From positions 18,413 through 82,412 of the IMG/VR virus record IMGVR_UViG_3300034102_002786: a DNA stretch of 64,000 nt, one strand, 5' to 3'. The notes under the pieces are model-generated. The model ran no database searches. It had not been told where the DNA came from and worked only from the letters and a program-made list of their open reading frames with translations. The translations under genes were made by a program, and so were the position numbers. Below, one piece after another: positions 26,625 to 63,972 of this stretch (position 1 is its first letter; every line of letters starts with the position of its first letter). The stretch comes from a virus (Duplodnaviria; Heunggongvirae; Uroviricota; Caudoviricetes).

Positions 26625-26635
26625 ATCACTTATAA
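26625..26635. promoter_or_regulatory. operator-like inverted repeat TTGAtttTCAA
   Basis: One of at least 11 intergenic copies of TTGA-N3-TCAA. Confidence 0.4.
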
Positions 26636-26651
26636 AAAAGATTAAAAAAGA

Positions 26652-26690
26652 TTTTGCTATATCAGGAAATCTTCGTATATTTGGGTATAA
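26652..26690 (+). promoter_or_regulatory. Bacteroidetes-type promoter (-7 TATATTTG at 26675-26682)
   Basis: gaTTTTGctatatcaggaaatcttcgTATATTTGggtat, upstream of the ATG at 26714. Confidence 0.55.
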
Positions 26691-26713
26691 TTAATCAACA
26701 AAACCCCTTTTAT

Positions 26714-28930
26714 ATGAGTTGGTATTCCGATTTTAAGACAGGTACAAAAGACCACTTAGTTAGTGGCAAATCCAAAAAAAGTAAATCATATAGTTCTTAT
26801 GGTAAATCCTCTTGGTGGATGGACGATTGGGATGTGGATTACCACTCTCCAGTTTATAGTACATACACTACAAAAGAGATTGCTACTAAGAACCTATATA
26901 AGTTGGCAGCTCATCGTAGAGCAATCGCTAACTTCGTATCTATTGTAACAGGTCAATCTATTCCTGTTAAGTTTTCAACTAAAGGCGATTCCTATACTGA
27001 TGGTAAGGTAGTAACTATTTCGGCTAACATAGCTGAACCGAAGGAGTTTGACCCGGCCGTAGGTTTGGCATTGCATGAAGGTTCACACATCAAACTTTCC
27101 AATTTCCAATTATTGAGAGATTTGGATTCGGCAATACATCGTATTGTTGGTAGTGAAGAATACAAACGATTGGATGAAGTTTCTAAAGCTAAAGGTATTC
27201 AATACTTTACAGGTATTGTGAAAGACTTACTTAACTATGTAGAAGATAGAAGGATTGATAACTTCATCTACAAATCAGCACCCGGTTATAGAGATTATTA
27301 TCGTTCAATGTATGATAAGTTTTTCAATGACCCTGCTATTGATAAGGGTATGAAATCTGATGAGTTCACCGAAGAAACGTTTGAGGCTTATATGTTCCGA
27401 TTGATTAACCTACATTCTAAATTCAGTAGGTTAGATGCCCTTAAACAATTACGTTCTATCGCTTCGGTAATTCAACTTAATCAAATCAGTAGGTTGAGAA
27501 CAACTGAAGATGCACTTAAAGTTGCTATTGAAGTTTACTCAATAATTGTGGAAGCTATTGAACCACTTAATCAGCAACAACAACAAAACGGAATTGGACA
27601 AGGTAGTGGTAATGGGCAAGCAGGTGAGGGTGAGCAAGAAGCGGGTGAAGATGATATTGATGTTCAAATGAGTGATGATGATGGTGATGATAAAAGTGGT
27701 GATACCAATGGTGATTCGGATATGAGTGGTGATTCTAATGAACCTGCTGAAGATGGTAAAGGTATGACCGGTAAGATTAGTGTTAAAGTTGGTAAAGGTG
27801 GTAAACCTTCCGATAAACCTGCTGATGGTAGATTATCACAAAGACAGATGGACATCATTCGTAAGAAGATTGAGAAACAAAAAGAGTTCTTACGTGGTAA
27901 CATTAAGAAATCTAAAATGTCTCAATCTGAATCCAAACAACTTCAATCAATTGAGGAAGCTGGCGCAGAGATGAAAGTAGTAGCACAGGATTATTATGGT
28001 ACTTCTTCTTCGTTCAAAGGTATTGAATGTGTTGTGGTTAAGAAGATGACTCGTAGCTTAATGGAGCAAGATAACTTCCCACTTACAACCAAAAGATGGA
28101 GTAGTACCGAAGATACTATGTATGAGCAGCACGCTAAAGAAGTGTTAGAAGGTATTCGTATTGGTACTTTATTGGGTAAGAAAATGCAAGTTAGAGGTGA
28201 GAGTAGAGAAACGATTTTCAATCGCCAGCTTGTAGGTAAGATGGATAAACGAATGGTATCTTCTTTGGGGTATGGTAATGAGCATGTGTTCTTTACTAGA
28301 GAGATTGATATGTTCAAAAAAGCTAACCTACATATTTCAGTAGATGCCTCTGGTTCAATGAGTGGTTCTAAGTGGAATAAAACTATGACTAATATTGTGG
28401 CATTGGCTAAGGCAGTTGATATGATTCCTAACCTTAACATTCAAATTAGTTTCCGTACAACAACTGGTGAGTTACCTTATATTGTATTGGCTTATGATAG
28501 TAGAGTGGATAAGTTTATGAAGGTTAAGCAGTTGTTTGGTTATTTACATCCAAACGGAACTACGCCTGAAGGTTTGTGTTTCGAAGCAATTTCAAAACAA
28601 ATGGTAGGTAGTAATGGCGAAGTTGATTCATACTTCTTAAACATATCAGATGGTGAACCTTACTTCCATGGCAAGGGTATGAGTTATAGTGGTAGTAATG
28701 CAGCTAAACACACTCGTAAGATGATGAAATCTATTGAGAGTATGGGTATCAAAGTATTGAGTTACTTTGTGGCAGATAATGGTTACGATATGGATGAAAC
28801 CACAAATAGTTCAGCTCGTATATTCAAAGAGTGTTATGGACCTTCAGCTAGTTATATTAATGTAACTAATGTAAACGAAGTGGCCCGTACAATGAACAAA
28901 TTGTTTATGAGTAAACCACAAAATTCATAA
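26714..28930 (+). CDS. CobT-like protein with C-terminal von Willebrand factor A (vWA) domain
   Basis: MIDAS motif DASGSMSGSKW in the C-terminal third. Start moved to the ATG downstream of the promoter, because the track's TTG start lies inside it. Paired with the downstream AAA_5 ATPase. Confidence 0.65.
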   Translation: MSWYSDFKTGTKDHLVSGKSKKSKSYSSYGKSSWWMDDWDVDYHSPVYSTYTTKEIATKNLYKLAAHRRAIANFVSIVTGQSIPVKFSTKGDSYTDGKVVTISANIAEPKEFDPAVGLALHEGSHIKLSNFQLLRDLDSAIHRIVGSEEYKRLDEVSKAKGIQYFTGIVKDLLNYVEDRRIDNFIYKSAPGYRDYYRSMYDKFFNDPAIDKGMKSDEFTEETFEAYMFRLINLHSKFSRLDALKQLRSIASVIQLNQISRLRTTEDALKVAIEVYSIIVEAIEPLNQQQQQNGIGQGSGNGQAGEGEQEAGEDDIDVQMSDDDGDDKSGDTNGDSDMSGDSNEPAEDGKGMTGKISVKVGKGGKPSDKPADGRLSQRQMDIIRKKIEKQKEFLRGNIKKSKMSQSESKQLQSIEEAGAEMKVVAQDYYGTSSSFKGIECVVVKKMTRSLMEQDNFPLTTKRWSSTEDTMYEQHAKEVLEGIRIGTLLGKKMQVRGESRETIFNRQLVGKMDKRMVSSLGYGNEHVFFTREIDMFKKANLHISVDASGSMSGSKWNKTMTNIVALAKAVDMIPNLNIQISFRTTTGELPYIVLAYDSRVDKFMKVKQLFGYLHPNGTTPEGLCFEAISKQMVGSNGEVDSYFLNISDGEPYFHGKGMSYSGSNAAKHTRKMMKSIESMGIKVLSYFVADNGYDMDETTNSSARIFKECYGPSASYINVTNVNEVARTMNKLFMSKPQNS

Positions 28931-28934
28931 CTAA

Positions 28935-28983
28935 TTGATTATCAATGAGTTAGCAAAAATACAGCTAACTCATTGATTTTCAA
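28935..28983. promoter_or_regulatory. two operator-like sites (TTGAttaTCAA at 28935-28945 and TTGAtttTCAA at 28973-28983)
   Basis: Same TTGA-N3-TCAA motif; the sites flank a 14-bp perfect hairpin. Confidence 0.4.
28941..28980 (+). terminator. hairpin terminator candidate after the vWA gene
   Basis: ATCAATGAGTTAGC-aaaaataca-GCTAACTCATTGAT is a perfect 14-bp stem followed by TTTT. Confidence 0.45.
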
Positions 28984-29014
28984 CCATTTGTAATCTCAAA
29001 AAATAATTAAAAAA

Positions 29015-29055
29015 ACATTTGGTAGTTTCAGGTATTTTTCGTATCTTTACGAAGT
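29015..29055 (+). promoter_or_regulatory. Bacteroidetes-type promoter (-33 TTTG at 29018-29021, -7 TATCTTTA at 29042-29049)
   Basis: aaacaTTTGgtagtttcaggtatttttcgTATCTTTAcgaag is nearly identical to the tRNA-array promoters. Confidence 0.55.
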
Positions 29056-29105: not shown

Positions 29106-30311
29106 ATGGCAAAGTCTAATGTAGACAAAGTGAGTAAAGTAATCTTCAAAGTAGTGAAGGTAGGCTCACATTTCAAACTAGCAAATACTGCTGGTAAAAT
29201 TGTAGGTACTAACGGAATTAGTACTGGTACTCGTAAGAAAGCTTTCGAAGCTGGTAAAGCACTTCGTAAAGTAGTTGGTAGTGGTGGTAAGATTCAATAC
29301 CGCTTAACCGATATGGCTGAATTTGATAACTTAGTTGCTCCATTGAAAAGCAACGCCGAAGTTAATGTTGAGAAATTGGATAATCATAAAGAGATTACCG
29401 ATTTTATCCATAACGAATCGGTTAAACTTAAACCTGAAGGATTGGTTATTTCAGACCTTAAATGGAAATACCTTATTCGTTCAGCTGTGAGAGCTAAAAA
29501 TATTATGATGACTGGACCTGCTGGTTGTGGTAAGACATTAGCAGCTAAAGCATTAACTAAAGGTTTAAAGAGACCTGATTTCTATTTCAACTTAGGTGCT
29601 ACGCAAGATGCTAGAGCAACGTTGATTGGTAACACGCACTTTGATTCTAAGAAAGGTACTTTCTTCGCTGAATCCGCTTTCGTAAAAGCAATCACCACTC
29701 CAAACGCTGTTATCCTATTGGATGAGTTGAGTAGAGCACATCCTGATGCTTGGAATATTCTTATGACAGTGTTGGATTTGGGACAACGTTACCTTCGTTT
29801 GGATGAAGCTGTTGATTCACCAATTGTAAATGTGGCTGAAGGTGTTACCTTTATCGCTACGGCTAACATTGGTGGTGAATATACATCAACGCGTGTTCTT
29901 GACCGTGCTATCTTAGACCGTTTCACTACAATTGAAATGGATGTATTGAACGATACGCAGGAGTTTGACTTGTTAAAGTATATGTATCCAGCTGTTAATG
30001 ATGATGATTTGAAAGCAGTAGCTGAAATCGCTCACCATACTAGAGAAATAGCTAAAGGTGGTGATGGTAAATTATCAACTGGTGTATCAACTCGTGCTAG
30101 TGTAGAAACTGCTGGACTTATCTATGATGGATTCAGTTTGTTCGAAGCAGCTGAGATTAGTATGTTCCCCTTCTTCAGTAATGATGGTGGTGTGGATAGT
30201 GAACGTACCTATGTTAAGCAGTTGGTACAAAAGTATGTAAAGGATGAGAAAGCTGATGAGGCTTTATTCACCGAACCAACCGAAGATGATAGTGAAAAAA
30301 TTGTTTGGTAA
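29106..30311 (+). CDS. CobS-like AAA+ ATPase (MoxR/CbbQ/AAA_5 family)
   Basis: Walker A MMTGPAGCGKT and Walker B VILLDELSRAHPD...NILMTVLD. Confidence 0.75.
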   Translation: MAKSNVDKVSKVIFKVVKVGSHFKLANTAGKIVGTNGISTGTRKKAFEAGKALRKVVGSGGKIQYRLTDMAEFDNLVAPLKSNAEVNVEKLDNHKEITDFIHNESVKLKPEGLVISDLKWKYLIRSAVRAKNIMMTGPAGCGKTLAAKALTKGLKRPDFYFNLGATQDARATLIGNTHFDSKKGTFFAESAFVKAITTPNAVILLDELSRAHPDAWNILMTVLDLGQRYLRLDEAVDSPIVNVAEGVTFIATANIGGEYTSTRVLDRAILDRFTTIEMDVLNDTQEFDLLKYMYPAVNDDDLKAVAEIAHHTREIAKGGDGKLSTGVSTRASVETAGLIYDGFSLFEAAEISMFPFFSNDGGVDSERTYVKQLVQKYVKDEKADEALFTEPTEDDSEKIVW

Positions 30312-30403: not shown

Positions 30404-31030
30404 ATGTTAAAGAAAGCAAACGAAAACGAAGTAATTGATTCCTTTGAGAAGAAGAAAAGGATTAGAGATGCGGCTAAATACTATGGCCTGTTTTTAGAAT
30501 CATTAGGATTTGATTATGAGGCTGACCCACAAACGGTAGAAACTCCTTTGAGGGTAGCTAAAGCTTGGGTAGAGGATTTGGTTAAAGGGAGTATGACACA
30601 TGCACCAAATATAACTGTATTTCCAAATGAGGAAGGTTATGATGGTATAGTAATTCAGACTGGTATTAAGGTGAACTCAATGTGCGCTCACCATAACTTA
30701 CCTTTCTATGGATATGCAGCTGTAGCTTATCTGCCCGAAAAGAATGTAATAGGATTGAGTAAGTTGAATAGAGTTGTAGATTGGTTTAGTAGAAGGCCAC
30801 AAATGCAGGAATCGCTTACACAACAAATACACAAATACCTTAGTGATAAATTGGAATGTGAGCATGTGGCGGTATCAATCAGCGGACATCACCTTTGTTG
30901 TGGTATGAGAGGTGTACAACATCCTGATTCCTTAATGACTACCAATAAATTTAGTGGTAGGTTTTTGGAAAAGGATAATTTGGTGAGAGAAGAATTTATG
31001 AACGCTATAAAAATGAATAAACTTAATTAA
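30404..31030 (+). CDS. folE: GTP cyclohydrolase I
   Basis: SMCAHHNLPFYG catalytic motif (CEHH-type) and GLSKLNRVVDWFSRRPQMQE. Confidence 0.85.
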   Translation: MLKKANENEVIDSFEKKKRIRDAAKYYGLFLESLGFDYEADPQTVETPLRVAKAWVEDLVKGSMTHAPNITVFPNEEGYDGIVIQTGIKVNSMCAHHNLPFYGYAAVAYLPEKNVIGLSKLNRVVDWFSRRPQMQESLTQQIHKYLSDKLECEHVAVSISGHHLCCGMRGVQHPDSLMTTNKFSGRFLEKDNLVREEFMNAIKMNKLN

Positions 31031-31549: not shown

Positions 31550-32473
31550 ATGGAATCAATGAGTGAAAGATTTGCACGTTTGGAAAGAGAACGTGACGAA
31601 GAACTTAAACAATATAAATTAGAACAACAATTAAAAATTAAAAAGATGACAAAAATTATTGGTGGTAGTGTTATAGGATTATTCCTAATGGTATTCCTTT
31701 TCAAATCTTGTGAAAGAATTGATGCAGGACATGTGGGTGTTAAAGTAAACCTTTATGGTGATAACAAAGGTGTAAGTGATGTGACTGAAGTAACTGGTAT
31801 GGTATTCTATAATCCAATTACGCATAGCATCTATGAGTTCCCAACGTTTATTCAACACAAAGAATATACAGGTGATAATTCATTCGTAGTAAATAGTAAA
31901 GATGGTAGTGAGTTCCATGTATCACCAATCATTAACTATTCAGTAAAGAGAGAGAAAGTTCCGGCAATCTTCGCTAAATATCGTAGAAGTTTGGACCAAA
32001 TAGAAGAAGGTTTTTTAAAGACAGCTGTATTTGATGCCTTCCGTTTGGCAACTAACGTTTATACTGCTGATGAATTAATTAGTAATAGACAGAAGTTTGA
32101 AATAGAAGTTCGTAGAATATTAGAAGGACAGTTATTAGCAGAAGGATTTGTAGTTAATCAATTCACATCTAACTTAGTATATCCCGAAACATTCAAAACA
32201 GCTATTGAAGCTAAGAATAACGCAGTACAATCGGCATTGATGGCTGAGAATAAAGTTAAGCAAGCAGAAGCTGAAGCTAAGATTAAAGTAGCAACTGCAG
32301 AAGGTAATGCACAGGCACTAATTACTTCCGCTAAAGCTGAAGCTGAAGCAAATAGGATGAAACAGCAAACATTGACACCGTTACTTATTCAATTGGAATA
32401 TGTACAAAAATGGGATGGTAAATTGCCGGTATATGGCGAAGTTCCACAATTGTTCAGAAACATCCAAAAATAA
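31550..32473 (+). CDS. SPFH/band-7 (prohibitin/HflKC-like) domain protein
   Basis: N-terminal TM helix, an SPFH-like core (HVGVKVNLYG...) and a C-terminal Ala/Glu-rich coiled coil. Confidence 0.55.
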   Translation: MESMSERFARLERERDEELKQYKLEQQLKIKKMTKIIGGSVIGLFLMVFLFKSCERIDAGHVGVKVNLYGDNKGVSDVTEVTGMVFYNPITHSIYEFPTFIQHKEYTGDNSFVVNSKDGSEFHVSPIINYSVKREKVPAIFAKYRRSLDQIEEGFLKTAVFDAFRLATNVYTADELISNRQKFEIEVRRILEGQLLAEGFVVNQFTSNLVYPETFKTAIEAKNNAVQSALMAENKVKQAEAEAKIKVATAEGNAQALITSAKAEAEANRMKQQTLTPLLIQLEYVQKWDGKLPVYGEVPQLFRNIQK

Positions 32474-32483
32474 ATTTTTAGAG

Positions 32484-32510
32484 AAAGTCTTGGTAATTCC
32501 AAGACTTTTT
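32484..32510 (+). terminator. rho-independent terminator overlapping the next promoter
   Basis: AAGTCTTGG-taatt-CCAAGACTT is a 9-bp perfect stem followed by TTTTT. Confidence 0.6.
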
Positions 32511-32522
32511 CGTATATTTGTA
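32489..32522 (+). promoter_or_regulatory. Bacteroidetes-type promoter (-7 TATATTTG at 32513-32520)
   Basis: The -33 TTGG lies in the terminator stem, 20 nt upstream of TATATTTG. Confidence 0.5.
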
Positions 32523-35261: not shown

Positions 35262-35660
35262 ATGGCATACGGAGAAAAGGTCATTGACCATTATCAAAAC
35301 CCCCGTAATGTTGGTACGTTGGATAAGAGTAAACCAACGGTGGGGACTGGGTTAGTTGGGGCGCCCGAATGTGGTGATGTAATGAGGCTCCAAATCCAAA
35401 TCGAAGATGGTATCATAACGGATGCCAAATTCAAAACTTTCGGATGTGGCTCGGCAATCGCAGCCAGTTCCTTAGCAACTGAATGGTTAAAGGGAAAGAG
35501 TGTAGATGAGGCGGCTAAGTTGGATAATATGGATTTAGTTGAGGAATTATCTCTACCACCTGTAAAGATACATTGTTCGGTATTGGCGCAGGATGCAGTT
35601 CAAGCCGCTATCAATGATTACCGAACAAAAAACGGATTAGAACCAATTAAATTTGATTAA
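35262..35660 (+). CDS. iscU: Fe-S cluster assembly scaffold IscU/NifU-like
   Basis: Full-length match to IscU: NPRNVG, GAPECGDVMRLQI, FKTFGCGSAIASSS and LPPVKIHCSVLA. Confidence 0.9.
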   Translation: MAYGEKVIDHYQNPRNVGTLDKSKPTVGTGLVGAPECGDVMRLQIQIEDGIITDAKFKTFGCGSAIAASSLATEWLKGKSVDEAAKLDNMDLVEELSLPPVKIHCSVLAQDAVQAAINDYRTKNGLEPIKFD

Positions 35661-36954: not shown

Positions 36955-37315
36955 TGAAGTTCTTTCTCAAATTAGCAACTATACTTTTGTTATTGGGAGT
37001 TATAATTTTTGTAATACCATTGGCTATATTTATTAATATAGTAATGCTATTGGATTCATATATTACCCAAATATATCGTTATTATAAAAGAAAAAGATAA
37101 TTATTAGTAAAAATTTTAATATGTCATTAACTAAGAAACAAAAGAAAGTAAGAAGGCGTAATCAGTTAGCAAAAAAGACCCGTAAAATGTTGTTTAAAAA
37201 GGGGTTATTTGGAAAAAAATGCTAATCTAATATAAGAATACTCAAAGACTTGCATGCCATGCGGGAGACACCCTTAAAATTGCTCTAAAAGCGTTTTAAG
37301 ACCCACTTTAACCCA

Positions 37316-37351
37316 TTGAAAATCAACTGATTATAACTCGTTGAAAATCAA
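37316..37351. promoter_or_regulatory. two operator-like sites (TTGAaaaTCAA at 37316-37326 and 37341-37351) in a larger inverted repeat
   Basis: aacCCATTGAAAATCAActgattataactcgTTGAAAATCAATGGGtt. Confidence 0.45.
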
Positions 37352-37359
37352 TGGGTTAT

Positions 37360-37400
37360 TTATTTGATTTATTCCAAAAAAATTCGTATATTTGTATATT
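37360..37400 (+). promoter_or_regulatory. Bacteroidetes-type promoter (-33 TTTG at 37363-37366, -7 TATATTTG at 37387-37394)
   Basis: 20-nt spacer; sits immediately downstream of the operator pair. Confidence 0.55.
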
Positions 37401-48672: not shown

Positions 48673-48748
48673 ATACTTATTAATTCTATGTGTATAACTC
48701 ATTGATTCTGAGGCATTTATGAAAGTTATCCACATTTAGAAAAAAAGA

Positions 48749-52735: not shown

Positions 52736-52947
52736 TAAAAAATTGGGAAGATGTGAGTGATGAAATTTGTTTTTATTATTATCTTGCAAATCTGACGCAT
52801 TGCCAATCAGTATTAAACGATGATGATTAAATAATTTCAACTCTCAAATCTTGATAGAGTCAACATTCGCGCAATGTCAACACACTCAAAACTCTTATTA
52901 ATTGGTAATCATATTAACTTATTGATTCACCACATCAACCCATCTAT

Positions 52948-54600: not shown

Positions 54601-54674
54601 GGGGAAGTAGCTCAGTTGGCTAGAGCATCTGCCTTGCACGCAGAGGGTCATGGGTTCGACTCCCTTCTTCTCCA
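54601..54674 (+). tRNA. tRNA-Ala (TGC) with the G3:U70 identity pair
   Basis: Acceptor GGGGAAG/CTTCTCC (G3-T70 wobble), D GCTC/GAGC, anticodon arm TCTGC-CTTGCAC-GCAGA, T-loop TTCGACT. Confidence 0.8.
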
Positions 54675-54678
54675 CATC

Positions 54679-54752
54679 GGACCTATAGCTCATTCGGTTA
54701 GAGCAACTGACTCATAATCAGTAGGTGCTTGGTTCGATTCCAAGTGGGTCCA
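54679..54752 (+). tRNA. tRNA-Met (CAT), copy 3, canonical elongator-like
   Basis: Acceptor GGACCTA/TGGGTCC, D GCTC/GAGC, anticodon arm ACTGA-CTCATAA-TCAGT, T-arm CTTGG-TTCGATT-CCAAG. Confidence 0.85.
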
Positions 54753-54760
54753 CAAAAATT

Positions 54761-54833
54761 GCGGAAGTAGCTCATTCGGTAGAGCACAACCTTGCCAAGG
54801 TTGGGGTGGCCAGTTCGAGCCTGGTCTTCCGCT
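54761..54833 (+). tRNA. tRNA-Gly (GCC)
   Basis: Acceptor GCGGAAG/CTTCCGC, D GCTC/GAGC, anticodon arm CAACC-TTGCCAA-GGTTG, T-arm GCCAG-TTCGAGC-CTGGT. Confidence 0.85.
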
Positions 54834-54893
54834 CAAAAGGACTTTAATGGTTGAAGTACAAAACCGAAGTAGGTTAGTCCCACCTACACAAAA

Positions 54894-54966
54894 GCGAGAG
54901 TAGCTCATTTGGTAGAGCGGTAGCCTTCCAAGCTTCAGGTGGCCAGTTCGAGCCTGGTCTCTCGCT
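54894..54966 (+). tRNA. tRNA-Gly (TCC)
   Basis: Acceptor GCGAGAG/CTCTCGC, D GCTC/GAGC, anticodon loop CTTCCAA (one mismatch in the stem), T-arm GCCAG-TTCGAGC-CTGGT. Confidence 0.75.
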
Positions 54967-55025
54967 CAAGTGGGCCTGTTAGTATTAGGCCGCAAGAAGA
55001 ATAGATGTTTTTCAATTACTACAAA

Positions 55026-55053
55026 CTCAAGCATTAATTTGCTTGGGTTTTAT
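55026..55053 (+). terminator. hairpin plus T-tract (weak terminator or attenuator) before tRNA-Gln
   Basis: CTCAAGCA-ttaatt-TGCTTGGG followed by TTTTATT. Confidence 0.35.
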
Positions 55054-55125
55054 TGCCCGATGATGTAATGGTTAGCATCACAGATTTTGATTCTGTTCGT
55101 ATTGGTTCGAGTCCAGTTCGGGTAA
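55054..55125 (+). tRNA. tRNA-Gln (TTG)
   Basis: Acceptor TGCCCGA/TCGGGTA, anticodon arm ACAGA-TTTTGAT-TCTGT, T-arm ATTGG-TTCGAGT-CCAGT. The track's TTG-start ORF at 55053 overlaps this tRNA and is rejected. Confidence 0.75.
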
Positions 55126-55136
55126 CAAAAAATATT

Positions 55137-55598
55137 ATGAAATATAAAATTTCATTTGAAGATATAAATAAAATAAAAGAGGTTTACAAAAATGGTAATG
55201 ATACTAGATATGTACCTAGCAATTCAGATGATATAAATAGTCCATATTTCATAAAAAGTGAAAGATTTTTTTGTGATTTAAAAAATGATGAATTACTAGA
55301 TATTATAAAAAATAATATACCAATAGATGATGTTAATGAATGTATAACATCAATTCATTATATAAATTACAAAAAAGGTGAAGGGGCAAAAGAACATAGT
55401 GATATTGGTGCATCTAATAAAACTTTTATTTTCATTCTAAACGATGAATTTGAAGGTGGTGAATTTCATTTGGATAAAAATTATGTTCCATTAGTGAAAG
55501 GAGATATAATAGCTTTTAATGGAAATCAGCTACACTTAGTTAAACCAATTAAAAAAGGAAATAGAGAGGTTTTAGTTGTCTTTCTAAAAAATAAATAA
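55137..55598 (+). CDS. 2OG-Fe(II) oxygenase superfamily protein (prolyl-4-hydroxylase/PKHD-like)
   Basis: HSD...H facial triad candidates (EHSDIG, then LHLVKP) and a C-terminal RE.LVVF strand. Start set at the ATG after tRNA-Gln. Confidence 0.65.
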   Translation: MKYKISFEDINKIKEVYKNGNDTRYVPSNSDDINSPYFIKSERFFCDLKNDELLDIIKNNIPIDDVNECITSIHYINYKKGEGAKEHSDIGASNKTFIFILNDEFEGGEFHLDKNYVPLVKGDIIAFNGNQLHLVKPIKKGNREVLVVFLKNK

Positions 55599-55625
55599 AA
55601 ATTTTAATAATTAAAAACAAATGTT

Positions 55626-55889
55626 ATGGGATTATTTTGGACGTATTATGTAATTTGTTTCATCTATTGTCTTGTAATGTCAATACGAAAATGGAATAGA
55701 GATGTAAGAGCAGGTGGTTTAGGTATATCACCTGGTTTAGATTCTTTGGCTCTATTGATTATGTGTTGGATATTAGCACCAGTAGATATATTCTTAACTT
55801 GGGTTAGGGTATATAAAGAAGCAGAAGAAGCAAGAAGAAATCAAAGTACTTTAGATACTAAAGACTTTAAAGATGAAAAAGTATTCTAA
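55626..55889 (+). CDS. small membrane protein
   Basis: 87-aa ORF with two TM helices. Confidence 0.45.
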   Translation: MGLFWTYYVICFIYCLVMSIRKWNRDVRAGGLGISPGLDSLALLIMCWILAPVDIFLTWVRVYKEAEEARRNQSTLDTKDFKDEKVF

Positions 55890-55906
55890 TTATTAGAGTA
55901 CTAAAC

Positions 55907-55991
55907 AGAGAGTTGGCCGAGTGGTTGATGGCGGCAGTCTTGAAAACTGTTTTACTGAAAGGTAACGGGGGTTCGAATCCCTCACTCTCTG
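55907..55991 (+). tRNA. tRNA-Ser (TGA), class II
   Basis: Acceptor AGAGAGT/ACTCTCT, 3-bp D-stem GCC/GGC, anticodon arm GCAGT-CTTGAAA-ACTGT, 16-nt variable arm, T-arm GGGGG-TTCGAAT-CCCTC. Confidence 0.8.
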
Positions 55992-55996
55992 CACAT

Positions 55997-56143
55997 TGTA
56001 AGGTGTTGGAATTGGCAGACAAGCCCTCCTGTCTCGGGGGTGGTGAGCACGAAATAGGTTAGTAATATGGGGTAGACCACCATCCTGCAGGAATGTGTTA
56101 CTAACTGAATCGCACTATGGTGGTTCGAATCCATCTCTTACAG
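55997..56143 (+). tRNA. 147-nt tRNA-like gene (Leu-like D-arm) carrying a ~78-nt insertion between the anticodon-arm region and the T-arm; anticodon unresolved; possibly intron-containing or disrupted
   Basis: Acceptor TGTAAGG/TCTTACA (7 bp), D-arm TG-TTGG-AATTGGCAG-ACAA is almost identical to the adjacent tRNA-Leu genes, candidate anticodon arm CCCTC-CTGTCTC-GGGGG, T-arm GGTGG-TTCGAAT-CCATC. The insert 56041-56118 contains a 9-bp hairpin GGTTAGTAA...TTACTAACT and the palindrome TCCTGCAGGA. Confidence 0.4.
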
Positions 56144-56148
56144 CAAAG

Positions 56149-56230
56149 GCCCCGTTGATGGAATTGGTAGACATGCCAGACTTAGGATCTGGTGCTGAGA
56201 AGCATAAGAGTTCGAGTCTCTTATGGGGCA
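56149..56230 (+). tRNA. tRNA-Leu (TAG), class II
   Basis: Acceptor GCCCCGT/ATGGGGC, D-arm TG-ATGG-AATTGGTAG-ACAT, anticodon arm CCAGA-CTTAGGA-TCTGG, 13-nt variable arm, T-arm AAGAG-TTCGAGT-CTCTT. Confidence 0.8.
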
Positions 56231-56246
56231 CTCAAAAACAAAATTT

Positions 56247-56703: not shown

Positions 56704-57303
56704 ATGAGTTACTCATCTGTTCAAGACTTATTTATTAGTATTCCTCAAAAAGTATTACTTGTTGGAAACGGTGATATTAAAAATATGGGAAGTATAATAG
56801 ATAGTTATGAATATGTAATTCGTTTCAATGATTTCCAATTGGATGGACATGAAGAAAATGCAGGTACTAAAATATCTGCATTATCTTTGCATTGCAGTGA
56901 CTTTTCTCACAAACATACAAAGTATTTAGAAAAAAATTATATAAAGTATAGTGGTAGTGTTCCTATATTTACAACATCACCAAAGTATCCAAACAGCAAA
57001 GATGATATAATACATATACAATCTGGAACTAAACTATTGGATGTATCACTTCCTTTGATGATTAGCCCAACATTTAGACTTTCATCGGGAGGAACTTTAG
57101 CATTAAATTTATCTTTGTTCTTTAATAAAGAAGTACATTTAGTTGGGTTTAATTTTTTCTTAAAATCAGGTCATTACTACGATAAAGATTTTACAAACGA
57201 AGAATTTTGGAAAAAAATTATGGGAACTGATGTTGTTGAACATGATGGTGAGTTTGAAAAAAGAATACTAACTAATTTTAAGAACATTCACATAATTGAT
57301 TAA
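56704..57303 (+). CDS. sialyltransferase-like glycosyltransferase (GT29/GT42-like sialyl-motif L)
   Basis: VLLVGNGDIKNMGSIIDSYEYVIRFNDFQLDGHEENAGTKIS follows the sialyl-motif L pattern (V.GNG..L.....ID..D.V.R.N...). Confidence 0.5.
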   Translation: MSYSSVQDLFISIPQKVLLVGNGDIKNMGSIIDSYEYVIRFNDFQLDGHEENAGTKISALSLHCSDFSHKHTKYLEKNYIKYSGSVPIFTTSPKYPNSKDDIIHIQSGTKLLDVSLPLMISPTFRLSSGGTLALNLSLFFNKEVHLVGFNFFLKSGHYYDKDFTNEEFWKKIMGTDVVEHDGEFEKRILTNFKNIHIID

Positions 57304-58597
57304 TATGAAAATAGTTGCGTTTTTACCTGTAAAGGGAACAAGTTCAAGAATAGAAAACAAAAATATAAAATTGTTGGATGGTAAACCACTATTCTTACAT
57401 ACATTAGAAAAACTTTTACAATGTGATATTATAGACGAAGTTTATTTAGATACTGAATCCAATGAGGTAATTGGTATGGCATCTCATTTAAATCATTTTG
57501 TATTAAAGAGAGACCATTCTTTGGCTGATAATAAAACCGATGGTAATAAATTATTTATGAATGAAGTTAGGCAAGTGGATGCCGATATATACATTCAGAT
57601 TTTATGTACATCACCTTTTATAGAAACCAATACAATTAAATTAGCAATAAATCAAATAGTACATTCCAAATATGATTCGGCTGTTTTAGTTAGAGATGAA
57701 AAATTATATACGTGGACAGATGGTAAGCCTGTGTATGATATAAACAATATACCTAACAGTGTTGATTTGGAAAGTACAACAATTGAAACTATGGGATTAT
57801 ACATAGTAAAAAAAGAATGTGCTATACAAACTCAAAGAAGAATAGGTGATAATCCATTTTTAGTTAAAGCAAGTATAATCGAAGCCATTGATGTTAATTG
57901 GCCTGAAGATTTTGAATTGGCAAATCTTATAGCAGCTGGTTTGAGAGAGAAAGATAGAATCTTATTGGATAACCTAAAAAGTCAATTGAATAGTTCGATG
58001 CTATCGGATTTGTTAGATGATTTGGGATATTCAACTATAATAAACGGATTACAACCAAACATAATTGATGCTAAGATTTTTGGTAGAGCTAAAACTTTGA
58101 AGATACGAAAGTTAAAAGAAGGTGATAGTTACAAAGGAATATACAATGCATTACATAGTTATAATACAATAGTACCAAATGATGTTATAATTGTTGAAAA
58201 CGAAATATCAGATTACGCATACTTTGGTGAACTAAATGCTAACTTAGGAATACGTTCTGGTGCGGTTGGTGCAATTGTTGGTGGGGTTACTAGAGATTCA
58301 GCTGATGTAAAGAAATTAGGGTTTCCTGTATTTGCTAAAGGTAATAAATGTATTGATGTTAGAAGGCGTGCAACTTTGGATGGAATAAATGTTCCAATAC
58401 AAATAGAAGGTGTTAGGATACTACCCGGTGATTTAGTATTTGCTGATAACGAAGGTATTGTTGTTATACCAAAAGAAATTGAGAAAAAATTATTGGCTAT
58501 GGCTATGGAAGTTTGTATGAAAGAAAAAAGTGTATTGTTGGATATAGCTAATGGTATAGGAGTTGATGAACTTGTAAAACGAAATGGAGAATTCTAA
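57296..58597 (+). CDS. fusion of a CMP-N-acylneuraminate (or CMP-nonulosonate/KDO) cytidylyltransferase domain with a C-terminal RraA-family domain
   Basis: The N-terminal KIVAFLPVKGTSSRIENKNIKLLDGKPLF is the NeuA/KdsB signature. The C-terminal GIRSGAVGAIVGGVTRDSADVKKLGFPVFAKG...GDLVFADNEGIVVIPKE is the RraA/MenG-like fold. Confidence 0.7.
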   Translation: MINMKIVAFLPVKGTSSRIENKNIKLLDGKPLFLHTLEKLLQCDIIDEVYLDTESNEVIGMASHLNHFVLKRDHSLADNKTDGNKLFMNEVRQVDADIYIQILCTSPFIETNTIKLAINQIVHSKYDSAVLVRDEKLYTWTDGKPVYDINNIPNSVDLESTTIETMGLYIVKKECAIQTQRRIGDNPFLVKASIIEAIDVNWPEDFELANLIAAGLREKDRILLDNLKSQLNSSMLSDLLDDLGYSTIINGLQPNIIDAKIFGRAKTLKIRKLKEGDSYKGIYNALHSYNTIVPNDVIIVENEISDYAYFGELNANLGIRSGAVGAIVGGVTRDSADVKKLGFPVFAKGNKCIDVRRRATLDGINVPIQIEGVRILPGDLVFADNEGIVVIPKEIEKKLLAMAMEVCMKEKSVLLDIANGIGVDELVKRNGEF

Positions 58598-59020
58598 ATG
58601 GATATTACTAAAGAAGTTATAAATCATTTGGCTAATAATATAAAAACCGAAATAGCAGTTTCACCTTTAGACGGTGTTGGTGTATTTGCCATCAAAGATA
58701 TTAAGAAAGGTGAAGATGTGTTTCCAATTTGGGAAGGTGAAACTGGAATTTATGTTGTACCTAATAGTGATTTGGATAAAATACCAAAATCGGTGCAACA
58801 TTTACTTCACAAATATTTTATCAACGAAGAATGTGGATATAAGATAATACGATTATTCAAAGGATTAAATTTCTTATTCCACGGATTCAGTTATTGTAAT
58901 TCAGCACACCCTAATATAGAAAATGTAAACATTGATATAAATGGGATAGCACTACGAGATATAAAAGCAGGCGAAGAAATTTTAGAATGGTACACAGAGA
59001 ATATAAACTTAGAAAATTAA
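58598..59020 (+). CDS. SET-domain protein (putative protein-lysine methyltransferase)
   Basis: HGFSYCNSAHPN (resembling NHSC.PN) followed by IALRDIKAGEEILEWY is the SET C-terminal signature. Confidence 0.5.
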   Translation: MDITKEVINHLANNIKTEIAVSPLDGVGVFAIKDIKKGEDVFPIWEGETGIYVVPNSDLDKIPKSVQHLLHKYFINEECGYKIIRLFKGLNFLFHGFSYCNSAHPNIENVNIDINGIALRDIKAGEEILEWYTENINLEN

Positions 59021-59061: not shown

Positions 59062-59406
59062 ATGGGAACACAACATGTGCCGTTACAAATTGATGAAAAC
59101 AACAATGTAACAAAAGTAGGACACGATATGGGTGGTTCGTATGAATACACCACAATTAAAGATAACGAACAATTTGATAATTGCGTAATTTGTGGAAAAA
59201 CTACGGTGTATAGAACACAGCAACATATTGATACTAGAATCGGATATGTTGAAGGCGTTGGACAACTTTGTGGAAATTGTTATACGGGTGGTTCACCTTC
59301 AGGCAGAGAAATGATTACAATACCAAAACATTGGGTATTGGGGACACCAAATGACCAAGAATTGGGTAAAAAAGTTAGGGCCTATTATTGGGAAAATTAC
59401 GGATAA
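59062..59406 (+). CDS. hypothetical Cys-rich protein
   Basis: CVICG...CGNCYTGG. Confidence 0.45.
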   Translation: MGTQHVPLQIDENNNVTKVGHDMGGSYEYTTIKDNEQFDNCVICGKTTVYRTQQHIDTRIGYVEGVGQLCGNCYTGGSPSGREMITIPKHWVLGTPNDQELGKKVRAYYWENYG

Positions 59407-59585
59407 TCATAACTCATTGATTTTCAACAACTTATAACTCATTGATTTTCAATGGGTTATTTTTTGTCAAAAACTTTTTTATTGATAATCAACACGTTAG
59501 AATTTGTGAGACAAAAATAATCACTAAAATATTTGTTTAATTCAAATACAATTACTACCTTTACTATGTAATAAAACTTAAAAAT
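59407..59585 (+). repeat. duplicated ~180-bp intergenic regulatory module, copy A (three TTGA-N3-TCAA sites plus a conserved promoter-proximal block)
   Basis: Roughly 80-85 percent identical by eye to 63781-63972: cattgattttcaa (twice), ttattgaNaatcaacacgttag, ctaaaatatttg, tttactatgtaataaaacttaaaaat(t)atg. Confidence 0.7.
59417..59492. promoter_or_regulatory. three operator-like sites (59417-59427, 59442-59452, 59482-59492)
   Basis: TTGAtttTCAA twice and TTGAtaaTCAA; the first two extend to CATTGA-N3-TCAA(tg). Confidence 0.5.
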
Positions 59586-60062
59586 ATGAAGGTCAATTTA
59601 GGAATTGTGGTAGCATCCCACTTAAACGATGCGATGATTGAAGTAAATTTCAATACGGAATTGGCAACCAAACGTATGAAGTTTGTAAAAGCTCTTACTT
59701 TCCATAATCAGAATTTGGAATTGGGTGTAACCGATGAGTATTTGAATTGGTTATGGTCTGAATTGGATAACGGTAATTGGGGTGGTGAATATGATAATTC
59801 AACTAATTATTCAATTGTAAAAAACGAAGGTAATATCAGAAACTATTATTTAGAAGCTTTCCCAACCGATGAATTGGGTATTGAAATTAATCCTGAAGCT
59901 ACCTTTGCTGGTTTACAAAAAGTTTTGGATAACTTTGAAGATGTTTATGAATACATTGGCGTTGGTGATAGTTTGGTAAGAGAGCGTGTATTCGATAAAT
60001 TGGCAATAACAATGGGTGTAGAATATGATGTAATTTATTCACAATGGTTATTGTCCGCTTAA
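59586..60062 (+). CDS. hypothetical protein
   Basis: 158-aa ORF downstream of module A. Confidence 0.5.
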   Translation: MKVNLGIVVASHLNDAMIEVNFNTELATKRMKFVKALTFHNQNLELGVTDEYLNWLWSELDNGNWGGEYDNSTNYSIVKNEGNIRNYYLEAFPTDELGIEINPEATFAGLQKVLDNFEDVYEYIGVGDSLVRERVFDKLAITMGVEYDVIYSQWLLSA

Positions 60063-62845: not shown

Positions 62846-63054
62846 AAATGATAAATGCAAATAATAGTGTGTGGGTAATAAAAAGAAAATTTAAAGCAGA
62901 TAGTTGGTTTGTTCAGGGATTATTCTCTAATAAATTTACAGCTCAAGAAGCTTGTGAAGCATATCACGTTGAAAAACTATTGAGAGGACCGGATGATACA
63001 CACTATTTAGTAAACGAAGTACCTGAAGCTGAAATTGTAAACGATACTATTTAG
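62836..63054 (+). CDS. hypothetical protein
   Basis: 72-aa ORF. Confidence 0.4.
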   Translation: MQIEMINANNSVWVIKRKFKADSWFVQGLFSNKFTAQEACEAYHVEKLLRGPDDTHYLVNEVPEAEIVNDTI

Positions 63055-63058
63055 AACT

Positions 63059-63385
63059 ATGAAGTATGACCCACAAAATGAGTTGACTGATGAACAACTG
63101 AAAGAATTATCCGAAGATGATTTCTTTGAGTATTTGGATACCAAAGCAGCTTACTTAAAAGAGTTCACAGTTCCATTAGACCAATACCACACTAAGAAAT
63201 ATGCATCTGTGGCAGCCGGTGGTAATCTTTCAACTAAACAATTGAGAGAGGCTAAGAAGATTGGTAGGGAAGGTGAATGGGTTCGTAACGAGAAGATAAG
63301 AGATGCTGCTAAAAACATTACTGCCAAAGTTCCTGATTTGTATGTTAAACATCACAAAACTGACCGCTCACAATGGTTTGAATAA
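63059..63385 (+). CDS. hypothetical protein
   Basis: 108-aa ORF. Confidence 0.45.
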   Translation: MKYDPQNELTDEQLKELSEDDFFEYLDTKAAYLKEFTVPLDQYHTKKYASVAAGGNLSTKQLREAKKIGREGEWVRNEKIRDAAKNITAKVPDLYVKHHKTDRSQWFE

Positions 63386-63395
63386 TTAATAAGTT

Positions 63396-63626
63396 ATGAA
63401 AGAATTAGACCTTCACGGATTATTACATCACCAAGTTAGAGATGAAGTTGAGAACTTTGTTTTACTTAACGCCAAAGAACTACCTATCAGAATCATAATA
63501 GGTAATTCTATCCGAATGAAAAACCTTACTGAAAACATTTTATATAAACATAAATTTGAATGGTATATCCCAGCGCATAACGCCGGTGAAATTATTGTTA
63601 CCTTTGATAAAGATTATAAACTATAA
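63396..63626 (+). CDS. Smr-domain protein (small MutS-related nuclease domain)
   Basis: ELDLHGLLHHQVRDEVENFVL...IRIIIGNS follows the Smr pattern (LDLHG...A...FL.....IIHGKG). Confidence 0.6.
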   Translation: MKELDLHGLLHHQVRDEVENFVLLNAKELPIRIIIGNSIRMKNLTENILYKHKFEWYIPAHNAGEIIVTFDKDYKL

Positions 63627-63629
63627 CCT

Positions 63630-63797
63630 ATGGGCAAGTTTTATGAAAATTTGGATGACCTTAATAAGTTAATTAAGAAGCTTGAAAAAAGAGATGAAGT
63701 ATCTATATTCTTATTAAGAGCAATAGCTTACGCTAAGGATAACCCAAACTTATCAGTTCACGAAATAATAAAGAACACTAAGGACGAAAGATTCTAA
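63630..63797 (+). CDS. small hypothetical protein (55 aa)
   Basis: Hand-translated MGKFYENLDDLNKLIKKLEKRDEVSIFLLRAIAYAKDNPNLSVHEIIKNTKDERF. Confidence 0.3.
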   Translation: MGKFYENLDDLNKLIKKLEKRDEVSIFLLRAIAYAKDNPNLSVHEIIKNTKDERF

Positions 63798-63972
63798 CCC
63801 ATTGATTTTCAATGACTTATGTAACTTATTGATTTTCAATGAATTATATTAGTTAAAAAATTCTTTATTGAGAATCAACACGTTAGCATTTAGACCCCAA
63901 AAATAACCCCTAAAATATTTGGATATATCGTGCCGTTTTTGTACATTTACTATGTAATAAAACTTAAAAATT
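63781..63972 (+). repeat. duplicated ~180-bp intergenic regulatory module, copy B
   Basis: See copy A at 59407-59585. Confidence 0.7.
63802..63878. promoter_or_regulatory. three operator-like sites (63802-63812, 63829-63839, 63868-63878)
   Basis: TTGAtttTCAA twice and TTGAgaaTCAA. Confidence 0.5.

Follow-up and report, generated by a model that had tools for sequence, protein, structure and literature searches.

An intergenic palindrome recurring in phage DNA looks more like a site for an IHF/HU-type DNA-bending protein than an operator for a phage HTH repressor

What reads a palindrome that recurs in the spacers between phage genes? The question is raised by the motif TTGA-N3-TCAA in the window, that is, the whole stretch of 64,000 nucleotides, from a large uncultured phage, that was analysed. 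An earlier note had described it as typical of a dimeric HTH regulator, possibly phage-encoded and controlling an early or middle regulon. There were 15 exact matches to TTGANNNTCAA in the window, compared with 3.15 +/- 1.77 expected from 100 dinucleotide shuffles (maximum 9). The non-coding 13.5% of the window, defined as the sequence outside ORFs of at least 60 aa, holds 12 of them (binomial p = 1.2e-8), and the motif is thus more frequent in intergenic than in coding DNA here. All 11 intergenic sites listed in the earlier note were present; ten had been given by their start, while 26625 is the end of a site at 26615-26625. This site is a singleton. The others form pairs and triplets upstream of promoters, as had been claimed: two pairs (28935/28973, 38 nt apart, and 37316/37341, 25 nt apart) and two triplets (59417/59442/59482 and 63802/63829/63868). 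The extended form CATTGA-N3-TCAATG, thought to be common, is perfect at just two sites (59440 and 63800). The twelfth non-coding match (49540) is solitary and lies upstream of a GOLLD RNA (49669-50086). This match and the three coding ones (14541, 24461 and 27657) have neither flanking arms nor the 13-mer WATCAANNNNTTR, and the four are about as many as expected by chance. A PWM detected nine strong copies of the longer unit described below, all nine intergenic, and one more, degenerate copy at 48702.

TTGA-N3-TCAA is the core of a palindromic unit of 25-27 bp, CATAAC-YCR-TTGA-nWn-TCAA-YGR-GTTATG, in which the outermost CA/TG is optional, i.e. (CA)TAAC-YCR-TTGA-nWn-TCAA-YGR-GTTA(TG). The 25-bp form, TAAC-nnn-TTGA-nWn-TCAA-nnn-GTTA, has arms of 11 bp. 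Read outward from the centre, both halves spell WATCAA-N4-TTR, which is the IHF consensus, and the core sets its TT and AA steps exactly 9 bp apart. Such steps are where the prolines of IHF/HU-family (DNABII) proteins intercalate; these proteins bind the minor groove and are not HTH proteins. All 77 of the 77 clustered sites have A or T as the middle base of the N3. Each of the 11 sites contains the 13-mer WATCAANNNNTTR at least once, as do two degenerate copies (48695 and 52915); of 29 occurrences in the window, where 11.7 are expected, 14 lie inside units. Units with one arm retain the 13-mer, and about 10 nt 5' of it they show an A5-7 tract, as in AAAAAAAGTTTATTGACAATCAATGACTTA; an A-run of at least five is found in 24 of 54 one-armed units. 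Canonically, an IHF site is made up of WATCAA, a TTR that follows after 4 bp, a pair of ApA steps 9 bp apart and, in its 5' half, an A4-6 tract (PMC1874591); all four elements have counterparts in the units. Aligned 20-mers of a one-armed unit and of the lambda attP H' site (AAAAAAGCATTGCTTATCAATTTGTTG) are identical at 15 of 20 positions, with the A-tract about 2 bp farther from WATCAA than in H'.

The first unit stands alone (26608..26632, core 26615-26625; TAACTGG-TTGATTTTCAA-TCACTTA), with its IHF-type 13-mer at 26608-26620 on the minus strand. It begins 3 nt past the stop of a small ORF (26419-26604) and precedes a Bacteroidota-type promoter at 26653..26683 (plus strand, TTTG-N19-TATATTTG) of a CobT-like gene (26654/26714-28930). 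The TAA of the next unit (28928..28952, core 28935-28945; 13-mers at 28928-28940, minus strand, and 28940-28952, plus strand) doubles as the stop codon of ORF 26654-28930. It is followed by a unit at 28966..28990 (core 28973-28983; 13-mer 28966-28978, minus strand) and by the promoter 29018..29049 (plus strand, TTTGG...TATCTTTA) of a MoxR/CobS-like AAA gene (29106-30311). Head to tail with a 25-nt period, two units occupy 37309..37333 (core 37316-37326; 13-mer 37321-37333) and 37334..37358 (core 37341-37351; 13-mer 37346-37358), both 13-mers being on the plus strand; the centre of the second lies 41 nt before the -7 box of the promoter 37363..37394 (plus strand, TTTG-N20-TATATTTG) of a HAD_SAK_2 gene (37411-37935).

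Starting 3 nt past the stop of ORF 59062-59406, the triplet at 59.4 kb consists of a unit at 59410..59434 (core 59417-59427; 13-mer 59410-59422, minus strand), a perfect CATTGATTTTCAATG at 59435..59459 (core 59442-59452) and a half-unit on the plus strand at 59463..59499 (core 59482-59492), which has an A/T tract, TTGATAATCAA and CACGTTA, no left arm, and the 13-mer AATCAACACGTTA at 59487-59499 (plus strand). A promoter-like element at 59532..59563 (plus strand, TTTG...TACCTTTA) leads into ORF 59586-60062. The triplet at 63.8 kb opens with the perfect CATTGATTTTCAATG at 63795..63819 (core 63802-63812), whose TAA is the stop codon of a small ORF (63630-63797), and continues with a unit at 63822..63846 (core 63829-63839; 13-mer 63822-63834, minus strand) and a half-unit at 63849..63885 on the plus strand (core 63868-63878; AAAAAATTCTTTA-TTGAGAATCAA-CACGTTA; 13-mer 63873-63885, plus strand), which is paralogous to the half-unit at 59463..59499. 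Its promoter-like element at 63918..63949 (plus strand, TTTGG...TACATTTA) belongs to an ORF that starts at 63979 and runs off the window. Two degenerate copies lie on the minus strand: TAACTCATTGATTCTGAGG at 48695..48713, upstream of a promoter at 48749-48780, where the 13-mer alone is kept (48695-48707, minus strand) and the palindrome partner is lost, and the half copy TAACTTATTGATT at 52915..52927, about 20 nt before a tRNA-Glu.

The arrays are thus found immediately upstream of promoter elements, as had been noted, but the promoters are of the Bacteroidota sigma-A type (TTTG-N19-21-TAnnTTTG) and not classic -35/-10 promoters. Units precede just 5-6 of the approximately 15 such promoters in the window, and about 10 similar promoters have no array upstream. 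The 13-mer together with its TTGA partner is enriched 71-fold in the 110 nt upstream of predicted promoters. Unit centres lie at approximately -53 to -81 from the start site, and related phages have at least 10 promoters at which the last unit is centred exactly 50 nt before the -7 box, in spacers whose sequence has diverged. Some units sit between a canonical terminator and a promoter, a position expected to be little transcribed from either side.

The best-fitting reader of the motif is a dimeric sequence-specific DNA-binding protein, because the arms are conserved as sequence and show no compensatory changes inside a unit, their centre is invariably A or T, and the promoter-proximal unit keeps its distance in the relatives' promoters. 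Within units, arm complementarity is not above that of shuffled units (z = -1.4 and -1.8). The dimeric part of the original proposal is therefore the best fit, whereas the HTH part is unsupported by an anatomy that resembles IHF/DNABII sites. We consider it possible, at a probability of roughly 40%, that the unit is a symmetrised site for a homodimeric protein of the IHF/HU family, probably from the host. The identity of the protein and its effect on transcription we infer as follows. A homodimeric DNA-bending protein would bind the units via the minor groove and bend the DNA sharply in the spacer that separates the end of a transcription unit from the host-type promoter following it, and this would serve to organise, activate or insulate some of the early or middle promoters. 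As palindromes with 11-bp arms, the units also fold as hairpins in the RNA transcribed from upstream, and the two copies with T-runs (37334-37358 and 59435-59459) probably terminate that transcript as well. The protein would most likely be that of the Bacteroidota-type host, or could be encoded by the phage outside the window; no DNABII gene was detected in the window or in the relatives' fragments by tblastn and Pfam. Bacteroides has an IHF/HU-family host factor for which E. coli IHF substitutes in IntDOT recombination in vitro (PMC2034462; PMC6606824), and Bacteroidetes have a greatly expanded HU/IHF superfamily (PMC5499826).

IHF sites of enterobacteria and their phages resemble the units in WATCAA, the TTR 4 bp downstream, the ApA/TpT steps 9 bp apart, the A/T centre and, for one-armed units, the A-tract in the 5' half, and they too lie upstream of promoters and beside tRNA genes. 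The match to the consensus was noticed post hoc and marks a candidate binding site; the consensus is enterobacterial, the likeness is one of sequence, and the site preference of DNABII proteins of a Bacteroidota-type host may differ. The units also depart from IHF sites in several respects. They carry the consensus on both halves and are true palindromes, which would fit a homodimer; the IHF of E. coli, by contrast, is a heterodimer with an asymmetric site. Their N4 positions (YGAG) and the CT of the left arm are conserved beyond the E. coli consensus. At 25-27 bp, abutting units leave too little room for two complete IHF-type wraps, each of about 35 bp, so that neighbours would need alternate or partial occupancy.

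A less probable alternative is that the units function chiefly in RNA, as hairpins that end transcription units by intrinsic termination or stabilise their 3' ends, with arrays as redundant or alternative hairpins and the conserved sequence as a result of the spread and homogenisation of a successful terminator cassette and not of protein recognition. The predicted folds are far more stable than those of shuffled sequences (z = -4 to -8), and in four of the five arrays the first unit overlaps the upstream stop codon or begins at most 3 nt from it. Two copies also qualify as intrinsic terminators: 37334-37358 (12 pairs at 37333-37359, then TTATTTGATT) and 59435-59459 (12 pairs at 59434-59460, then TTTTTGTCAA) pass a simple terminator scan and make up two of the four intergenic plus-strand terminator-like hairpins in 20-64 kb. 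In more distant relatives the corresponding spacer before the AAA gene holds canonical terminators that share the core, for example AAGCCGTTGAAAATCAACGGCTTTTTTATT in L022. The outer arms of adjacent units covary (z = 5.4); at 28.9 kb the right arm of one unit and the left arm of the next form a perfect 13-bp inverted repeat (RNA -24.3 kcal/mol, z = -8), which in two relatives (L001 and L009) shows a compensatory T:A to C:G change. This covariation and the compensatory change favour some selection on pairing. Against a purely structural role, a run of at least five T follows 11 of 80 units, compared with an A-run before 8 of 80, and mismatches between arms show no excess of the G:U-compatible type on the transcribed strand (31 G:T, 26 A:C), just as covariation within units is absent. 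Half-units unable to form the hairpin persist across phages, an element selected for structure only would not be expected to keep identical 22-nt stems across phyla, and the invariable A/T centre and the fixed promoter distance are left unexplained. The element had no match among Rfam families.

The distribution of the unit bears on who owns its reader. It recurs in many contigs of a large clade of related jumbo phages, and the identical 25-mer is also found in contigs of unrelated phages with different promoters and GC content. Exact copies were detected in 56 bacterial genome stretches, compared with about one expected as estimated from base composition; 50 of these belong to the FCB group (33 Bacteroidota, 17 Fibrobacterota). 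The bacterial copies, perfect palindromes, typically lie 11-15 nt past the 3' end of a tRNA gene and are followed by a T-run, an arrangement in Bacteroidota chromosomes that looks like an intrinsic terminator and counts for the hairpin and against an IHF-type site. Such a motif is not a private phage operator, and its distribution suggests either a generic element or a factor of host type.

It is therefore unlikely, and somewhat less probable than a hairpin, that the units are operators of a dimeric regulator (HTH or another fold) encoded by the phage outside the window, which by cooperative binding to tandem sites would switch a set of early or middle promoters. The palindromic consensus with both arms conserved as sequence, the tandem arrays upstream of a subset of promoters, the conservation over the jumbo-phage clade and the fixed distance between last unit and promoter in relatives all agree with an operator. 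However, a private regulator cannot explain an identical element in unrelated phages and in Bacteroidota and Fibrobacterota chromosomes, including after tRNA genes, and centres at -53 to -81, not over the promoter, make simple repression by occlusion unlikely. A Pfam scan of the approximately 90 ORFs in the window found no HTH, DNABII or other DNA-binding domain. The product of the gene at 21379, put forward as a candidate HTH protein, was rejected as it is an HNH endonuclease. An 11-bp half-site with two conserved patches 7 bp apart would be unusual for an HTH protein. FNR/CRP-family boxes (TTGAT-N4-ATCAA) share the pentamers TTGAT and ATCAA with the units, but the spacing in the units is TTGAT-N1-ATCAA (11 bp, not 14 bp), which misfits the CRP/FNR dimer, and FNR boxes lack the flanking TAAC/GTTA patches. 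Nor may control of an early or middle regulon be the whole function, since the two terminator-like copies and the four arrays at stop codons suggest that it lies partly at the 3' end of the upstream transcript.

Finally, the units could be parts of mobile or recombinogenic regulatory cassettes (PeSL, REP/BIME or MITE-like) that persist by cassette exchange or self-spread, with secondary effects on expression. They combine a stem-loop with a host-type promoter between small, patchily distributed ORFs, and homologues of the genes at 55-64 kb are scattered among relatives. The number of units per array differs between close relatives (two in the window, three in L003-L005), indels or rearrangements adjoin arrays in L001, L009 and L003, paralogous cassettes of about 180 nt lie at 59.4 kb and 63.8 kb, and in one Saprospiraceae MAG the motif lies within a longer repeat present at many contig ends. 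We nevertheless regard this as improbable, because many indels between relatives lie away from arrays and the association is without statistical support, Pfam detected neither a Y1 (RAYT) nor any other transposase in the window, the conservation far exceeds what recombination within one lineage would produce, and the stem-loops of PeSLs are unlike the units.

Known elements of this kind offer partial parallels to the units. Correia elements of Neisseria are small intergenic inverted repeats with a functional IHF site that can supply promoters and terminators and fold into mRNA hairpins; they are MITEs of 100-155 bp with 26-bp terminal inverted repeats and a target-site duplication, and no such ends were seen at the units. 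The RIB/RIP elements (BIME-1) of E. coli, which join REP palindromes to an IHF site, are likewise repeated extragenic palindromes at the 3' ends of transcription units with variable copy number per locus, and the roles ascribed to REPs include termination, stabilisation of mRNA, insulation and protein binding (PMC3333891). BIME-1 has its IHF site in a linker flanked by two G/C-rich REPs, whereas here the A/T-rich palindrome itself is IHF-like, is seen without a RAYT transposase and occurs, with few copies per genome, in phages and FCB-group bacteria. The promoter-early stem-loops (PeSLs) of T4-type phages are, like the arrays, short conserved intergenic cassettes of a terminator stem-loop and a host-type early promoter, and are likewise placed between the small, variable genes that a large phage carries (PMC2839356; PMC4122927). 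Their stem-loops are G/C-rich, in many cases polyG/polyC, and are situated between the -35 and -10 boxes or over them, and the promoter is the conserved part; here the stem-loop sequence itself is conserved across phyla, upstream of the promoter, in arrays of 1-7 units.

The palindrome TTGANNNTCAA was found 15 times in the window against an expectation of 3.15, and 12 of the 15 matches fall in the 13.5% of the sequence that is non-coding (p = 1.2e-8). The motif described in the earlier note is thus real, and its intergenic enrichment holds within the window. All 11 sites reported there are present (cores at 26615, 28935, 28973, 37316, 37341, 59417, 59442, 59482, 63802, 63829 and 63868); the one placed at 26625 is the end of a site at 26615-26625. 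Extra core matches at 14541, 24461, 27657 and 49540 lack flanking arms, and their number is at chance level. The conserved unit comprises 25-27 bp and reads (CA)TAAC-YCR-TTGA-nWn-TCAA-YGR-GTTA(TG), as in the 25-bp copy TATAACTCATTGATTTTCAATGGGTTATT. Its outer TAA/TTA triplets rank among the best conserved arm positions, and among 77 clustered sites the first of the three central bases is T in 58 and the third is A in 45. The units are A/T-rich and amount to about 11 copies per 64 kb, limited to five spacers, with none in the structural-gene block at 1-26 kb. Within an array they either abut head to tail with a period of 25-27 nt or are spaced at about 37, 50 or 57 nt.

In four of the five arrays, the first unit follows the upstream stop codon by 3 nt or provides its TAA, and unit centres lie 41-69 nt upstream of the -7 box of the next promoter. 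Promoters of the form TTTG-N19-21-TAnnTTTG number about 15 on the + strand, compared with 9 on the - strand and about 5.6 in shuffled sequences. Sigma-A promoters of Flavobacterium and other Bacteroidota are of this form, their -7 box occupying -12 to -5 (PMC9723704), which makes a Bacteroidota host probable. The general arrangement is a stem-loop array followed by a promoter of this type, and the adjoining genes occur patchily across relatives. A further short motif, CCCCAAAAAT or GAGACAAAAAT, is located between the last unit and the promoter at 59500-59530 and 63890-63917. It also occurs inside array spacers and in the arrays of four related contigs (L033, L035, L040 and L047); some relatives have a GGGG downstream with which it pairs, so that a unit is enclosed in a longer terminator-like hairpin. 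A hairpin with a 13-bp stem, GAGAAAGTCTTGG-TAATT-CCAAGACTTTTTC, is found within the promoter at 32481-32520. Its sequence is unlike the TTGA-N3-TCAA motif; it covers the -33 TTGG, stops at the -7 box TATATTTG and resembles a PeSL in being a stem-loop between promoter elements.

We read the units as symmetrised IHF/DNABII-type sites at transcription-unit boundaries, some copies of which may be terminators too, and assign this reading a probability of roughly 0.4. A canonical IHF site consists of WATCAA, a TTR 4 bp away, two ApA steps 9 bp apart (the positions of proline intercalation) and an optional A4-6 tract in the 5' half (PMC1874591). Each unit half, read outward, is WATCAA-N4-TTR, the IHF consensus, and the exact sequence WATCAANNNNTTR is present on at least one strand in all 11 sites and in both degenerate copies of the unit (48695-48713 and 52915-52927). 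WATCAA-N4-TTR has 29 matches in the window against 11.7 expected, and 14 of the 29 lie inside units; every one of the 11 sites has one or more, each degenerate copy has one, and the four chance core matches have none. In TTGA-N3-TCAA the steps T1T2 and A10A11, both invariant by the definition of the core, are exactly 9 bp apart. One-armed units, in which one outer arm is absent and the IHF-type 13-mer is kept, have an A5-7 tract about 10 nt 5' of WATCAA. A run of at least five A is present in 24 of 54 such units and ends about 10 nt before the W. In the lambda H' site for IHF that gap is 8 nt, and an alignment of 20-mers shows identity with H' at 15 of 20 positions. In the full palindromes, a second consensus occupies the place of the A-tract, and a homodimeric DNABII protein would prefer such a palindrome with the consensus on both halves. 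An IHF/HU-family host factor operates in Bacteroides, and E. coli IHF can substitute for it in vitro (PMC2034462, PMC6606824); the HU/IHF superfamily is greatly expanded in Bacteroidetes (PMC5499826).

The IHF resemblance is post hoc, with the anatomy added to it, and the sites are predicted ones. With a spacing of 25 bp, adjacent units leave no room for two full wraps, and the N4 positions are partly conserved; both count against IHF-type sites. So does the result of tblastn with IhfA, IhfB, HupA and TF1, which detected no DNABII gene in the window or in the fragments of relatives examined; the sole match was in an unrelated contig (L181). Very little is known about the organisation of transcription in Bacteroidota phages or about the targets of the phylum's many HU/IHF paralogues, and a full-text literature search returned no account of the motif. 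If the IHF reading is true, TAAC-N3-TTGA-N3-TCAA-N3-GTTA would be a simple cis-element marking transcription-unit boundaries in a large uncultured jumbo-phage clade, a candidate recognition sequence for a Bacteroidota/Fibrobacterota DNABII protein, and a possible marker for assigning such phage contigs to a host phylum.

The broader proposition that the units are protein-binding sites of any kind, i.e. are read as double-stranded DNA, seems probable to us from the sequence comparisons; that they serve as RNA terminator or stabiliser hairpins we consider unlikely, although several observations favour such a role. Predicted folds are far more stable than those of shuffled sequences (z = -4 to -8), and two copies (37333-37359 and 59434-59460) pass a terminator scan as a stable hairpin followed by a U-tract. 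Some relatives have canonical terminators with the same core in place of the units, and the bacterial copies resemble tRNA terminators. Covariation is seen between the outer arms of adjacent units (z = 5.4), and the inter-unit hairpin at 28.9 kb contains a compensatory change. However, complementarity between the two arms of a unit is that of shuffled arm pairs in clustered sites (z = -1.4 and -1.8), and within-unit covariation in viral-contig sites ascertained by pattern is weak (z of about 2.8) and diluted by chance matches. The middle base of the supposed loop, the W of the consensus, is without exception A or T (77 of 77 sites), and one-armed units, which are unable to fold, are kept across phages. 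In relatives, at least 10 promoters with divergent spacers have the last unit exactly 50 nt upstream of the -7 box, and some units sit between a canonical terminator and a promoter. In the phage clade, a T-run follows just 11 of 80 units, a weak asymmetry against the 8 of 80 that have an A-run in front. Mismatches have no G:U bias, G:T (31) versus A:C (26) being uninformative as a test for a + strand RNA hairpin. In the window only the GOLLD RNA and tRNAs pass the Rfam gathering score, and permissive thresholds likewise gave no family for the units; nothing comes near threshold at 59380-59600 or at one bacterial copy. We conclude that hairpin formation is real but a secondary property of the units. 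If they were merely a shared terminator hairpin, the identical sequence across phyla would still need an explanation.

In bacteria, the perfect palindrome TAACTCRTTGANNNTCAAYGAGTTA was found in 56 genome stretches (33 Bacteroidota, 17 Fibrobacterota, 5 PVC-group, 1 gammaproteobacterium), where about one would be expected by chance, as estimated from base composition. Of 12 Bacteroidota loci inspected, seven have it 11-15 nt beyond the 3' end of a tRNA gene, usually with a T-run after it. These copies of the 25-mer (L220, L222, L237, L239, L204, L252 and L254) follow genes for tRNA Lys, Cys, Gln, Asp and Arg in different families; judged from these loci, one stem sequence after tRNA genes of different families is unexpected for ordinary terminators. 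In the Saprospiraceae MAG GL122_UP_metabinner_4, the palindrome is centred in a longer repeat, ...CCACCATAAATGGTGG...TAACTCATTGATAATCAATGAGTTA...AAACTTGCTGCAAG... (L207, L226, L227, L229, L230, L232, L241, L244 and L246). This repeat is located at the ends of many small contigs, a MITE-like or IS-like behaviour.

Among phages, relatives of the AAA protein encoded at 29106-30311 were detected in many IMG/VR contigs of up to about 290 kb (59-94% identity). The closest relatives of the window (L001, L002, L009 and L029) have the same units at matching places, and in L003-L005 the number of units differs from that in the window. Arrays of up to seven units occur in relatives with an AAA protein of only about 60% identity, upstream of CobT-like, GP88, RNA ligase and DNA ligase genes; some relatives of intermediate distance are without any units. 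A scan of viral contigs with TAACNNNTTGANNNTCAANNNNTTA gave, among the matches listed, the unrelated contigs L128 and L145 of higher GC, in which GTAACTCGTTGAnnnTCAACGAGTTAC flanks G/C-rich hairpins upstream of sigma-70-like promoters. In the unrelated low-GC viral contig L118, two DnaA-box-like repeats TGTGGATAAGTTGTGGATAAC stand between the motif units and the promoter (6460-6490). The largest arrays precede GP88-family genes (PF17338; L040 at 16979-17824, L047, L035 and L033), and such a gene is likewise downstream of the array in L128 (1256-1969, - strand). We treated this link as a coincidence among early genes rather than a functional one; to our knowledge, no DNA-binding role of GP88 has been described.

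By this distribution, which takes in unrelated phages and bacterial genomes, the motif does not belong to a single phage regulator as its private operator. The earlier note had proposed a dimeric HTH regulator, possibly phage-encoded. A dimeric DNA-binding protein and sites upstream of promoters fit our results, but a phage HTH regulator is unsupported: Pfam and PHROGs searches detected neither HTH nor DNABII (PF00216-type) domains in about 90 window ORFs, and the suggested 21379 product (21379-21942) matches HNH endonuclease families in both collections and has no regulator domain. An operator of an HTH repressor was rejected on the same absence and on the distance of 41-69 nt between unit centres and the -7 box. 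That the units serve another dimeric regulator, encoded elsewhere in the phage, appears doubtful to us. The IHF-site, hairpin, other-regulator and cassette readings are not mutually exclusive.

More speculatively, the palindrome might be the high-affinity site of one homodimeric HU/IHF paralogue of the FCB group, a host element copied in arrays by large Bacteroidota phages. The paralogue would be drawn from the large Bacteroidetes-specific expansion. In host chromosomes, behind tRNA genes and at the ends of mobile elements, the element would both bind the protein and act as a terminator; in phages, the arrays would recruit the host protein as boundary and activator for early or middle transcription units. 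Alternatively, the host protein might target invading DNA through the palindrome. If true, a DNA code would for the first time be defined for a DNABII protein of the Bacteroidota, and the still unexplained HU expansion would be tied to phage biology.

It is quite improbable that the units are recombinogenic cassettes of the PeSL or REP kind. PeSLs of T4-type phages (PMC2839356, PMC4122927) are among the nearest known things, sharing the conserved stem-loop and host-type early promoter as a cassette between variable small genes. Indels adjoin arrays in the relatives L001, L009 and L003, but many indels lie elsewhere. The RIB/BIME-1 elements of E. coli, repeated and palindromic, located at 3' ends and carrying IHF sites (PMC3333891), are also close. 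REP/BIME elements differ in their high copy number, G/C-rich imperfect palindrome, conserved 5' tetranucleotide and RAYT, whereas the units are A/T-rich with about 11 copies, and Pfam detected no Y1 transposase (RAYT) domain in the window. The remaining candidates were dismissed: an FNR/CRP box requires TTGAT-N4-ATCAA (14 bp) and all copies are TTGAT-N1-ATCAA, while, on anatomical grounds, N4-type hairpin promoters differ in sequence and the units do not precede every gene, integron attC sites and IS200/IS605 ends share only TAAC...GTTA and neither integrase nor TnpA is present, type III toxin-antitoxin and CRISPR repeats do not match the irregular unit spacing, and ANTAR or RAT antiterminator targets do not match a position upstream of promoters instead of in leaders.

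The predicted gene content of the window is that of a large phage, with all long ORFs on the + strand and a GC content of about 32%. By sequence matching, it is a phage without a close cultured relative; megablast of 8-kb and 12-kb window stretches against 50,697 phage records returned no match. A ribosomal protein S21 homologue (17880-18152; Pfam Ribosomal_S21, E = 3e-11) precedes a 796-aa tail-fibre protein (18219-20609) with five collagen triple-helix repeat stretches, tail-fibre PHROG matches and a local GC content of up to 0.40. Large freshwater phages of Bacteroidota are reported to encode S21, which would agree with the promoter type of the window. Further genes encode a CobT-like/MoxR-AAA pair (AAA protein at 29106-30311), GTP cyclohydrolase I (30404-31030), an SPFH protein (31550-32473), NifU (35262-35660), PspC (36133-36348), an IscA-like protein (36625-36954) and TerC (40391-41041). 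Auxiliary genes are abundant in the window, those from GTP cyclohydrolase I to TerC and a cytidylyltransferase-RraA fusion (57296-58597) included; the ones at 44817-45954, 46344-46799, 47950-48636 and 58598-59020 comprise a heme oxygenase adjoining a ferredoxin-dependent bilin reductase, an AdoMet decarboxylase, an S-adenosylmethionine lyase and a SET-domain protein. For the fusion product, the search for related loci found no relatives. A full-length GOLLD RNA (49669-50086; 295.9 bits against a gathering score of 150) heads a cluster of 27 tRNA genes (48807-56231, + strand) covering nearly all amino acids. The ARAGORN call at 50378-50449 is odd: its 'anticodon' has two bases, and Rfam gives no tRNA match there. 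Four near-identical promoter cassettes, TTTGGTAGTTTGAAAAA...TCGTATCTTTA, precede GOLLD at 48749, 48888, 49041 and 49141 (region 48749-49172).
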